DNA of 61,488 nt. It comes from a virus (Duplodnaviria > Heunggongvirae > Uroviricota > Caudoviricetes). The stretch lies in IMG/VR virus record IMGVR_UViG_2908567220_000003; one strand, written 5' to 3'. Position numbers and translations under genes: made by a program. Numbering within the stretch: position 1 is the stretch's first letter; each line of letters begins with the position of its first letter. Below, piece by piece: positions 20,575 through 38,518 of the stretch. The notes beneath the pieces are model-generated. The model made no database searches, was not told the DNA's origin, and saw only the letters and a program-made list of their open reading frames with translations.

Positions 20575-20848
20575 TCAAGTTTTTTAAAATTGACTGTATA
20601 TCAATCGTTTAACATGAAAAAACAGTCTTTATAAATCATCGAGCAATACACAGCGCAATACACGTATCTGTATTGTTTTAATGCTGATACACACCGTTTT
20701 TTGATACAGTGATTCGACCTACCATCGCGAAGCATTTTTTATTTCTTGTGTGTAACAATCTGACGAGGTGAGCACTCAAAGAGATAAGAGGCAGTAGAAA
20801 TTTCGATCCCCCCTGAATGCAATTTTTCGTATATATATACAAAACAGT

Positions 20849-21002
20849 GCGGGTTATGCGGGTTAGCGGGTTATCTTCGCGTGCTAATTATCTTTTACTC
20901 TTTAATATCAATATGTTAAAAAACAACGCATTTAAATACCAGCCAGAATGTAACCCGCAAGACATTCAAAATAACCCGCAAACACCCCTCAAATAACCCG
21001 CA
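20849..21002. repeat. iteron cluster 1: three tandem GCGGGTTAT repeats, AT-rich spacer, three inverted copies
   Basis: direct copies at 20849, 20858, 20866; inverted TAACCCGCA at 20951, 20972, 20994 with about 21-bp phasing. Confidence 0.7.
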
Positions 21003-21082
21003 AAAACATCCCTGAAAGTAGGTGCCGGTAATACTGAAAATTTATTCCATTAAATGAGCATTGTCCTCTCTCATCCATTCCG

Positions 21083-22744
21083 TTACACACCATCAAACGC
21101 CGCAAGCCGCTCTTTGTGGCTGTCGCTCATATCGAATGCAAATTCCTCATGCTCTGCCTGGAATGTGCCAAACGCCATCAGCGCCGCAACGCTCGGGTCT
21201 ATCTTGTTGGATGATTTTTTCTTGTTCGGCTTGATATTGGCGTTCGCGTCACTCTGCATCACAACATTACTCATTGACCAGGCCAGCACCGGATCACCAC
21301 GATGCACAATCACCTTCCGGTTAACAAAAACTTCGAACGATTTCGCCGCCGGACTGAAACGAAGGTATGTTTGCGGGAACGGCTCCACCTCAAATCCTGC
21401 GCCCTGTAGCTGCGTCCTCAGGTGCGTGGCGTTCCATGTATCGAAGCCCACCAGCCTGATATTGAAATTTTCTGCATCTGCCATGATGTCATCACGGATA
21501 CGGTCATAATCAATGCAGTCACCCGGTGTTGTGCGTATCCAGCCCGCCTTTACCCACTGGCGATAGATGGCGCGGTTTTTATTGGCGGGGTTCTGTAGCT
21601 GAAATTCCGGCAGATAGTGACGGGAAACCAGCATAATCTTTTTACCGACCGGAAAGGCATAGCACACGCTGGAAATATCGCTGGTTGATGATAAGTCCAG
21701 CCCCGCGTAGCACTCCTGCCCGTATAAATCCGCCTCCGCGAACGTTCCGGCGCACTCCGCCCATGCACCGTTACCCATCCACGGCGTAGCCCCCTGACAC
21801 CAGATATTGAATCGCTTGGTGAGCATTTCCACCCACTGCGACGGAATACCCCGCGCTTTCTGGATGGTTGAGGCCAGTTTTTCACGATCGACGGAAACAT
21901 CGATATTGGGATTCGCCTTTATCCACATCGCCGGATCGTCAACCTCGCTTTCATCATCCAGCTCGTAAATCAGCACGAACATGGATTCGTTCACCTCTTC
22001 ACCATCCAGTATCTGGCAGCAATAGTCGTAGTGTTGTTTACAGGCTGAAACAACGTTGCTCCCCGATGTGGTGATGGCAAATAATAACCCCTCCGGACGC
22101 GCCCCCATTCCCAGTTCAAGCGCGGAATAAACCCCGTTGTCAGGGTGCAGGTGATATTCATCCACAATGGCAAGACTCGGGTTTGTACCTTCAATGGTTG
22201 CCGCTTTTGCTGCCAGTGGTTTTAACAGGCTGTTGGTTTTCGGGTGTATCACCTTGTGTGCCTGAATATTTACCCGCTTTCGTAACGGTCGGGATAAAAG
22301 GCACATCTGACGCGCATCATCAAACACGATCCGCGCCTGATCACGACTCACGGCGGCGGTGTAAATATCCTGCTGCCCGTTTTCCATAACCAGAAACCAG
22401 TTAGCCAGGATAGCGGCGACCGTGGATTTGGCATTTTTTCGCGGTACTTCAATGAATGCGCTGGTGTATTTGCGCCGCCCGGTGGCCTTAACCTTAAAGC
22501 CCAGGATGCACGCAAAGGCGAACTGCTGCCACGGCTCCAGCTCAATGGGGCTACCGCGCATTGCGCCTTTTACGTGCGGGCACACCCTGGAAAAGGCAAT
22601 AAACCGCTCCACGACCTCCGGATCGAACGTGTAAAGGGGGTTTTCAAGGTCAGAAAAATACCGTTTAACGGCCTGTTTCAGTCGTTTACAGGCCGTAATT
22701 TTGCCGTTTTTTACGCCTTCTGCGTACTCATGCCAGGCGGTCAA
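21083..22744 (-). CDS. terL: terminase large subunit (satellite copy, intact)
   Basis: 553-aa ORF with ATPase and nuclease regions; track start codon is TTG, overlaps terS end; start uncertain. Confidence 0.85.
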   Translation of the reverse strand: MTAWHEYAEGVKNGKITACKRLKQAVKRYFSDLENPLYTFDPEVVERFIAFSRVCPHVKGAMRGSPIELEPWQQFAFACILGFKVKATGRRKYTSAFIEVPRKNAKSTVAAILANWFLVMENGQQDIYTAAVSRDQARIVFDDARQMCLLSRPLRKRVNIQAHKVIHPKTNSLLKPLAAKAATIEGTNPSLAIVDEYHLHPDNGVYSALELGMGARPEGLLFAITTSGSNVVSACKQHYDYCCQILDGEEVNESMFVLIYELDDESEVDDPAMWIKANPNIDVSVDREKLASTIQKARGIPSQWVEMLTKRFNIWCQGATPWMGNGAWAECAGTFAEADLYGQECYAGLDLSSTSDISSVCYAFPVGKKIMLVSRHYLPEFQLQNPANKNRAIYRQWVKAGWIRTTPGDCIDYDRIRDDIMADAENFNIRLVGFDTWNATHLRTQLQGAGFEVEPFPQTYLRFSPAAKSFEVFVNRKVIVHRGDPVLAWSMSNVVMQSDANANIKPNKKKSSNKIDPSVAALMAFGTFQAEHEEFAFDMSDSHKERLAAFDGV

Positions 22745-36968: not shown

Positions 36969-37122
36969 ATATCAATACGGTTCTGGCGAGCCGCTTACTA
37001 TTTTTCGTGGAAATTTTCCTTCCTTTTCAAGTAACGATCTGTGTCTCCTGCCAAGAGCGGTTAACCATGCACATTCATCTTCCTTAATCATCCTGTCGAT
37101 TGTTTCATCATTTTCAAGTTCT

Positions 37123-38346
37123 TCACGCGTAACTATTTGAATCATTACTGTCACCACTAATTTGCTTATTCAGATAGTCGTACCACCAGTTCATAGCTTC
37201 TTTTTTTCTGTCCATATACTGGCTTCTGTTATAAACCCCGGCAACACCGCCTAATGTGTGCCCAAGCAACTGTTCAACCACATTATGTTCAAAACCATGA
37301 TCACTTAGTTTTGTGGCAAACACTCTTCGCATATCATGCGCCGTCCATTTCTCCGAGTGTTTCATCCTTTTCCATGTCTTACCGATAGTTACGCTTGCCG
37401 TACACTGACGCATATCAAACCCAATCACATTTTCTTTGTTACCTGTTATTTTTTTTAACGTAACTAACCAGTTAAACATGCCATCAGGAATCGGTCTGAT
37501 TATTTCCCTGCCATTTTTGCTATGATCAGCGGGAACGCGCCATAATTTCTTATCAAAATCCCACTCTACCCAGGACGACAGTAATACTTCTGACAGTCGA
37601 CAACCAAAAACTACCAGGAAACGTAAAATAATTCGGTTTTCATATGATAATTCGTGATTGTCATAATCAGTATTAATACTTCGCCATAAATCTCTGATTT
37701 CATCATCTGTTAAAACCCTGCTTCTTCGCGCAGACTTTTTTCCCACATCACAGACCTCAAGATCATCAATTTCATGACTAATCGCGTATTTTCTTACCCT
37801 ACAAAATTTAAGCGCCTGTTTTGATATACGCAACAAAGCTCCGGCCTGTACAGGTGCTACTTTTTTTATTTTGTCAAAACACTTAATCCACATAGATATA
37901 GAGCAATCACTAAGTGGTACATGACCAATCACCGGATAAATATGTTTACCAAAGCACTGCCTGATATGTTCTGCTCCCCTACGCTTATCCATTGCATAAT
38001 TATCAAGCCAGTATTCAAGTGCCTCACGAACGGTAACAGGTTGCAAGGTGGCTTCCCGTTCAATTTTTATCTGAATCCGTGGATCTCTGCCCTCCGCAAG
38101 CCAAGTTCGACACTGATCGCGCATCTCTCTCGCTGATTTGAGACTCAGATCAGGATATTTTCCAAGTGTCAGCCAGATGGGCGCGGTTTCCCTTCCCGCC
38201 AGTCTGTAAAAGAAAACAAAACTAACACATCCGTATTTACTGACCCGTACCGAAAGCCCGTTACCATCAGCGATGGTTTCCTGCCTCTCACTCCTGCGTC
38301 CAAGCAGGGAACGAAGTTTTTTATCGCTCAGTTTGTTTAGCGCCAT
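37123..38346 (-). CDS. int: tyrosine integrase, P4-type (satellite)
   Basis: ATG at 38346 (MALNKLSDKKLRS) inside track ORF 37123..39546; C-terminal R..H..GH..Y catalytic pattern; adjacent to right junction. Confidence 0.85.
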   Translation of the reverse strand: MALNKLSDKKLRSLLGRRSERQETIADGNGLSVRVSKYGCVSFVFFYRLAGRETAPIWLTLGKYPDLSLKSAREMRDQCRTWLAEGRDPRIQIKIEREATLQPVTVREALEYWLDNYAMDKRRGAEHIRQCFGKHIYPVIGHVPLSDCSISMWIKCFDKIKKVAPVQAGALLRISKQALKFCRVRKYAISHEIDDLEVCDVGKKSARRSRVLTDDEIRDLWRSINTDYDNHELSYENRIILRFLVVFGCRLSEVLLSSWVEWDFDKKLWRVPADHSKNGREIIRPIPDGMFNWLVTLKKITGNKENVIGFDMRQCTASVTIGKTWKRMKHSEKWTAHDMRRVFATKLSDHGFEHNVVEQLLGHTLGGVAGVYNRSQYMDRKKEAMNWWYDYLNKQISGDSNDSNSYA

Positions 38347-38518
38347 GTGATTTATAACCCGTTTTTGCAATACACAGTGCAATACACAAATGATGAAAAC
38401 AGCCAGAACCTTCCAGAAAAAACAAAAACGACGAACAAGAAAAAAATCTTTTTCTTTCATTTGGTTACTAAAAAAATCAGGACAGGTCGCACTGTTGTTA
38501 CGGCGTGATGTTACTTTC

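Follow-up and report, generated by a model that had tools for sequence, protein, structure and literature searches.

Co-oriented tandem doublets near both ends of a helper-embedded chromosomal island are probable arm-type sites of its P4-like integrase

We examined the IMG/VR virus record IMGVR_UViG_2908567220_000003, a stretch of 61,488 nucleotides (nt) assigned to the Caudoviricetes and referred to below, at its full length, as the window. It carries an 18-kb helper-embedded phage-inducible chromosomal island (HE-PICI), a satellite that sits in the large terminase gene terL of an HK97-like lambdoid prophage, its helper. The satellite encodes a large terminase, small terminase, HNH protein, head–tail connector, portal, protease and major capsid protein, together with a single-stranded DNA-binding protein, a DUF927 primase, a Bro-N protein, two AlpA-family proteins and a P4-like integrase (Int). 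Close to each end of the satellite, the 9-mer GCAATACAC occurs twice in tandem; we call each such pair a doublet. The features at the two junctions are listed by position in the window.

19831..20567, minus strand: 3′ part of helper terL, the left flank, split by the satellite
20561..20574, no strand: attL core TTGGTAAgAAtATT, with the crossover in TTGGTAA (20561–20567), from alignment with the empty site of E. coli M217
20643..20663, plus strand: int-distal doublet, GCAATACAC-AGC-GCAATACAC, on the attL side (P′ arm), starting 75 nt from the crossover heptamer
37123..38346, minus strand: int, P4-like tyrosine integrase of 407 amino acids (aa), with Arm-DNA-bind_3 (residues 6–92) and Phage_integrase catalytic domains (Pfam)
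38367..38387, plus strand: int-proximal doublet, GCAATACAC-AGT-GCAATACAC, on the attR side (P arm), a candidate int operator
38519..38532, no strand: attR core TTGGTAAAAAAATT, with TTGGTAA at 38519–38525, from the same M217 alignment
38519..39546, minus strand: 5′ part of helper terL, the right flank, in frame into int

The original prediction had noted, from the sequence of the window, a tandem of this 9-mer near both ends of the element in the same orientation. That observation stands: the two doublets lie on the plus strand, one at each end, and match at 20 of 21 positions. The details needed correction, since the spacer is 3 nt rather than 2, giving a period of 12 at both sites, and the coordinates were off by one; the span first given for the left copy (20642..20664) is the published 23-nt form of the motif. 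Both sites hold an exact GCAATACA-N4-GCAATACA, and we refer to GCAATACA as the half-site. When the doubled pattern GCAATACANNNNGCAATACA was sought with up to two mismatches, it matched exactly twice in the window (0.03 expected), and none of 100 shuffles gave two matches. The single 9-mer with one mismatch showed no enrichment in the window (16 matches, 15.5 expected), so that the signal is the exact tandem. A lone exact GCAATACAC at 41328–41336 (minus strand), in the helper prophage near HNH and lysis genes, has no tandem partner and is probably a chance match. The 47 nt that follow the distal doublet (20664–20710) contain an inverted partial copy, TGTATTG (20669–20675), and two ATACA-containing words, GATACACAC and GATACAGTG (within 20687–20710); we did not count TGTATTG and the ATACAC-like words as sites because they were seen only in one near-identical site group.

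We placed the junctions by aligning both with the empty site of E. coli M217, which gives attB as catgtgtTTGGTAAAAAAATTcaccc and puts the crossover in TTGGTAA. Two positions immediately beyond the heptamer distinguish the attL core from attB and attR (gAAtATT at 20568–20574, AAAAATT at 38526–38532), so the sequence common to attP and attB is TTGGTAA plus a partial flank only. Such limited identity is consistent with a 7-bp overlap region. Uninterrupted terL is present in 901 E. coli genomes, and comparison with it puts the start of the left doublet 75 nt inside attL, near the left junction as first proposed. The right doublet ends 131–132 nt inside attR and lies 20–40 nt upstream of the int start codon at 38346, which agrees with the placement that had been suggested for it. 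E. coli 042 holds a near-identical copy of the satellite (99.3% over 24.4 kb) with a 100% identical Int, which places the window's Int in the HE-PICI clade; the split of terL at 20567/38519, with int and terL both on the minus strand, is the published context of HE-PICIs.

The window's doubled motif, its spacing and the element itself were already published in 2023. Tommasini, Mageeney & Williams (NAR Genom Bioinform 5:lqad036; PMC10111431) described HE-PICIs at 14 sites in prophage late genes and reported a doubled motif, tgTGTATTGCantgTGTATTGCa, with two co-oriented copies per attP, 81 ± 2 bp upstream and 132 ± 2 bp downstream of its centre. That motif, with tandem TGTATTGC cores at a period of 12, is the reverse complement of the motif in the window, where the near edges of the 23-nt form lie about 78 and 134 nt from the centre of TTGGTAA. 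The same study lists the E. coli 042 element as Eco33.15.A_Terminase_1_246, with the att identity 'ttaccaa' (the reverse complement of TTGGTAA) and the note 'term_int fusion'. The window shares this context, a prophage late gene of site group A:Terminase_1:246, and nothing in the feature itself sets it apart; only the window copy has an IS66-family insertion in an alpA-family gene, which the 042 copy lacks. As the binder of the motif its describers suggested the arm domains of an Int tetramer, AlpA or another protein (PMC10111431).

Conservation near the ends of related elements had been named as the test of the original prediction, and the motif passes it: we found the doublet at both ends of elements from at least ten Int lineages (45–71% identical) whose flanks are unrelated and whose cores differ (terL, capsid E and others). 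The doublets do not resemble the core in sequence, and their distance from the crossover is fixed among these relatives; the distal doublet keeps its position in other site groups as well. The proximal doublet lies 16–29 nt upstream of the Int start in most lineages, and 54–69 nt upstream where a third copy intervenes. When viral contigs were scanned for the exact pattern, at least 120 loci matched. Of these, 45 sites lie 16–69 nt upstream of an Int homologue (45–70% or 99% identical); their orientation never varies, and in at least eight lineages the sequence around them is unrelated. Most of the others lie 75–80 nt inside junction-like sequences with several different cores. About two dozen sites have neither feature, fall in unrelated, often repetitive sequence, and were taken as chance.

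A survey that selected elements by their Int, independently of the motif and with one genome per species, gave the same picture. The doublet was present upstream of int in 14/14 intact int genes encoding an N-terminal domain at least 64% identical to that of the window (from Xenorhabdus, Arsenophonus, Rahnella, Kosakonia, Cedecea, Kluyvera and Erwinia), with one mismatch in the second core (GCAATACG) in four of the Xenorhabdus loci. The arrangement also holds in a satellite of E. coli K56-43-un, which is inserted in a lambda-like major capsid gene and encodes an Int about 50% identical to the window's. At 19 nt upstream of its int it carries GCAATACAA-gct-GCAATACAG, joined by a third, degenerate copy, and GCAATACAC-act-GCAATACAC lies 77 nt inside the opposite junction. 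This satellite (locus L003, 9634–20373), helper-embedded but of a second kind, is about 10.7 kb long, has the core TTCGGCT, encodes capsid, decoration and small terminase proteins, and bears abortive-infection genes at both ends of its accessory region.

We next compared the motif with the domains of Int. The N-terminal domain of the window's Int matches PF13356 (Arm-DNA-bind_3; residues 6–92, E = 5.7e-18), and relatives of it in the PDB are the crystallized arm domains of HAI7 and HPI/CP4-like integrases (3ju0 and 3jtz/3rmp). Among ten GCAATACA lineages the mean identity of this domain is 66%, that of the core-binding domain 46% and that of the catalytic domain 49%. One would expect such a pattern if specificity for the arms stayed constant as specificity for the core shifted to new targets. 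All Ints that accompany GCAATACA have an N-terminal domain at least 64% identical to the window's, with 42–48% identity over the rest of the protein, whereas Ints that accompany other motifs have N-terminal domains 40–59% identical at equal divergence of the rest. Six residues of the domain (Q22, F43, V44, W58, T60 and R90) are invariant in 20 GCAATACA lineages and different in 13–16 of 18 other-motif Ints; F43 is replaced by W in 15 of the 18. Motif class thus appears to follow the Arm-DNA-binding domain and not the rest of Int, a relationship that is correlative only. E. coli is host both to P4 (ATGCCCCC) and to HE-PICIs (GCAATACA), and Xenorhabdus both to GCAATACA and to TTTAyACA elements; different motifs within one host or genus indicate that the reader is encoded by the element and is unlikely to be a host factor.

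The evidence leans towards Int as the protein that binds the doublets, and we consider it likely that they are arm-type sites of the satellite's P4-like Int, with the proximal pair probably serving as an int operator as well. Recombination of attL with attR in TTGGTAA would yield an attP with co-oriented doublets about 214 nt apart, at roughly −132 and +75 nt around the crossover. Each 8–9-bp half-site would be contacted by a single N-terminal Arm-DNA-binding domain from an Int tetramer, so that the four half-sites would serve four protomers while the C-terminal domains held the core sites, and the fixed spacing and 12-bp period would define intasome geometry, as in lambda and P4. The original suggestion of arm-type integrase or recombination-directionality sites draws support from the conservation of the motif, its fixed distance from the crossover and the layout of the P4 attP arm repeats. 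Several points weigh against this reading. Int is a predicted binder, and the motif's describers allow Int, AlpA or another protein; the linkage of int and alpA makes the covariation with Int partly phylogenetic and so less telling against AlpA; all elements examined have an AlpA-family gene, even the islands of 3.6 kb; the identity gap between N-terminal domains of different motif classes is narrow (59% versus 64%); and a promoter scan found no consensus sigma-70 promoter in the P arm, which leaves the operator role to analogy.

Alternatively, the doublets might bind the satellite's AlpA-family protein, which would then bend both arms as an excisionase, activate the int promoter or do both. 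This seems unlikely to us, although AlpA is on the list of the motif's discoverers (PMC10111431), every element examined has AlpA-family genes beside int, winged-helix recombination directionality factors typically use tandem direct repeats, and in some PICIs AlpA may, according to the literature, activate an upstream int promoter. Sites of directionality factors normally lie on a single arm, in the stretch from the core to the outer arm sites, whereas here the same doublet occupies both arms at fixed distances and in a number that matches four Int protomers. The AlpA proteins also fit the motif less well. Those encoded next to int in window-type and capsid-site elements have no significant tblastn match to each other, yet the motif is the same; conversely, the AlpA of the Xenorhabdus locus L137 matches the window's second AlpA at 67%, as do those of GCAATACA relatives at 60–67%, yet its doublet is TTTAyACA. 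The second AlpA paralogue complicates this comparison. No GCAATACA-like site was found near alpA's own upstream region, and in P4 the equivalent repeats are annotated as attP arm repeats. A search for an element with doublets and no AlpA gene ended with an AlpA-like open reading frame (ORF) even in a 3.6-kb Shewanella fis island; the Shewanella TGCTACAC group gave no AlpA match, but its distal end lies beyond the 10-kb flank.

We regard it as distinctly improbable that the doublets are bound by a host DNA-bending protein or by another element-encoded protein that builds the intasome. The fixed spacing shows an architectural role only, which such a protein could fill, but the motif is not IHF-like according to the published analysis (PMC10111431), and doublet-bearing islands of 3.6–4.8 kb code for little besides int, an AlpA-like protein and two or three ORFs. 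Host factors in particular were rejected as readers because motif classes differ among elements of the same host (P4 and HE-PICIs in E. coli; two classes in Xenorhabdus). There is very little to recommend a view of the two copies as a functionless product of chance or recent duplication, or as packaging or replication signals near the element's ends. The distal copy does lie within about 440 nt of the end of the satellite terL, with GCGGGTTA iterons clustered about 185 nt away, but the shuffles never gave two doublets, the motif is exactly conserved where flanks are unrelated, small islands without packaging genes carry it too, and its spacing is tied to the crossover point and not to ter or ori. 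Packaging signals were accordingly rejected on the comparative data.

Period-12 doublets also occur outside the HE-PICIs. More distant Int relatives carry other tandem repeats just upstream of int, likewise with a period of 12, as listed here by host.

Shewanella and Tolumonas: TGCTACACAC
Photobacterium: TTGATACAC
Shewanella and relatives: GGTTACACGCA, GGGGGCACGCA, AGGTGCCCAC and GTGACACRCA
Vibrio and Limnobaculum: GAACCCACA
Xenorhabdus (L137) and Symbiopectobacterium: TTTAyACA

Where the element fitted the fetched flank, its own doublet recurred, co-oriented, at the far end; this was seen at nine loci of five classes. The motif classes found at both ends are GCAATACA, TTGATACAC, GGTTACACG, GGGGGCAC and GAACCCAC, so both arms change together. 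We reconstructed attP through the att identity block and measured the gap as the number of nucleotides between the two doublets. The gap is 212–215 nt in 16 reconstructed attPs with a credible core, covering four motif classes. It is 214 nt in the window, 212–215 nt in eight other GCAATACA elements, and 213 or 214 nt in L149, L152, L153, L154, L155 and L157, which span four motif classes. The estimate for L146 (class TTGATACAC) is 222 nt, not 213. Finding the core as the longest common substring gave spurious results for L134, L135, L043 and L070; the first two were redone with restricted sequence windows, and L043 and L070 were left out of the count.

The smallest doublet-bearing islands are 3.6–4.8 kb long and lack packaging genes. 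One of them, L153 (Shewanella subflava, 9753–13631), is 3.8 kb long and sits at the 3′ end of fis, and its doublets, GTGTAACC, are 214 nt apart; it encodes Int, an AlpA-like protein of 62 aa and three or four further ORFs, and is flanked by a 75-bp imperfect direct repeat that takes in the fis terminator. The published statement that only HE-PICIs have the motif and that fis PICIs lack it came from a survey that looked only for the HE-PICI sequence (PMC10111431). Our data agree with that statement on the sequence and disagree on the doublet design, which exists outside HE-PICIs, in Shewanella and Vibrio fis islands and in P4, with other half-site sequences.

The record of P4 (NC_001609), the prototype of the family, marks six 12-bp 'attP arm sequence repeat' features, and two tandem pairs account for four of these. 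These pairs (3942–3965, which is 16–39 nt upstream of int, and 4151–4174) are co-oriented and lie on either side of the core at 4078–4097, and P4 Int belongs to the same family, with an Arm-DNA-bind_3 N-terminal domain. P4 differs in its motif, (A/G)TGCCCCC, in its gap of 185 nt as against about 214, in two extra single repeats and in its target, a tRNA-Leu gene and not a prophage late gene; its Int is 25% identical to the window's. The P4 attP arm repeats were reportedly first described by Pierson and Kahn in 1987. Lambda Int, the model of a heterobivalent integrase, likewise uses its N-terminal domain to read non-core sites (P1, P2 and P′1–P′3) on both attP arms. Lambda attP spans about 240–300 bp. 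Its arms measure about 150 and 90 bp (PMC2951348). In lambda, however, five sites are used differently in integration and excision and int is not transcribed within an arm, whereas the window has four half-sites in two near-identical doublets and an N-terminal domain of a different Pfam family. We are inclined, by a modest margin of belief, to see two co-oriented period-12 doublets about 213 nt apart as the ancestral attP, a minimal one of four sites, for the PICI branch of P4-like integrases as a whole, Shewanella and Vibrio fis islands included and P4 as a 185-nt variant. The half-site would have co-evolved with a few residues of the Int N-terminal β-sheet (for example F43 versus W), giving an arm-recognition code that may be readable and possibly swappable.

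The position of the proximal doublet bears on the control of int. Transcription of int runs away from the core, and its ATG is only 173 bp from the helper terL sequence, so the P arm must contain both the int promoter and the 5′ leader. Int bound to the proximal doublet, 20–40 nt before the ATG, would repress int and so regulate itself. Promoter scans of both arms gave no sigma-70 consensus upstream of int, and the one weak match, in attL, was on the wrong strand with a score below the shuffle mean. An operator role is therefore argued by analogy with P4 Int and KplE1 IntS, on which ground the proximal doublet is probably an int operator. For P4, Piazzolla and colleagues reportedly found in 2006 that the N terminus of Int is enough to repress int. 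KplE1 IntS is negatively autoregulated, with an int promoter that overlaps the att arm (Panis et al. 2010, PMC2951348), and negative autoregulation of int has also been reported or cited for P4 Int and for PAI I536. As in the window, int of KplE1 is transcribed away from the core, with its promoter region in an att arm and arm-type sites just upstream of its start (PMC2951348). KplE1 is unlike the window in the sequence of its sites and in that sites for TorI, its directionality factor, have been mapped in that arm as well; in the window, no consensus promoter was found by scanning upstream of int.

The doublet also bears on the annotation of int. RefSeq gives int in strain 042 as 445 aa, starting at a position equivalent to 38460 in the window, so that the doubled motif would fall inside the coding sequence. 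Alignment of the lineages shows a conserved start, M-A-x-N-K-L-S-D, which supports an int start at 38346. An open frame of 807 aa (37123–39546, minus strand) runs without a stop across attR, so that int is joined in frame to the 5′ part of helper terL.

Two AlpA-family genes lie further inside the satellite.

33870..34178, minus strand: second, intact AlpA-family gene (PF05930), whose product is the other candidate for reading the motif
36998..37145, minus strand: 5′ fragment of the AlpA-family gene next to int (73 aa in E. coli 042), which an IS66-family insertion interrupts at about codon 49

The insertion in the int-adjacent gene (start 37145) is flanked by an 8-bp duplication, ATTTTTCG. 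The IS66-family element is present in two 100% identical copies of 2705 bp, at 34294–36998 in the satellite and at 47689–50393 in the helper prophage. Since this alpA-family gene is split here and the E. coli 042 copy is free of the insertion, the window's satellite may be impaired for excision or induction.

We also noted features of the satellite and its helper away from the att arms. GCGGGTTA occurs 14 times in the window (1.7 expected), with six exact repeats in each of two clusters (20849–21001 and 29018–29140). One cluster closely follows the DUF927 primase gene on its downstream side; the second, 8 kb away and in mixed orientation, lies between the end of the satellite terL and attL. 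By analogy, the two clusters resemble the P4 ori and its distant cis-required region (crr), both of which consist of the same short iterons. In the helper prophage, 45008–45258 encodes tRNA-Arg(tct) and a tRNA with a CAT anticodon (tRNA-Ile in the annotation of strain 042), upstream of the antiterminator and lysis region, the usual tRNA cluster of lambdoid prophages.

What we add to the 2023 description is that P4 has the same design, that doublets occur outside HE-PICIs, that the gap between them varies little (212–215 nt in 16 attPs with a credible core) and that the motif correlates with the Int N-terminal domain. For the window, the doublets mark the attP arms of the HE-PICI and fix the true start of int, and precise excision would rebuild the helper terminase gene. 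If general, the fixed 213-nt, four-half-site design would be a compact system in which arm-site and core specificity can evolve independently, and could help to explain how this clade continues to gain new sites in prophage late genes.

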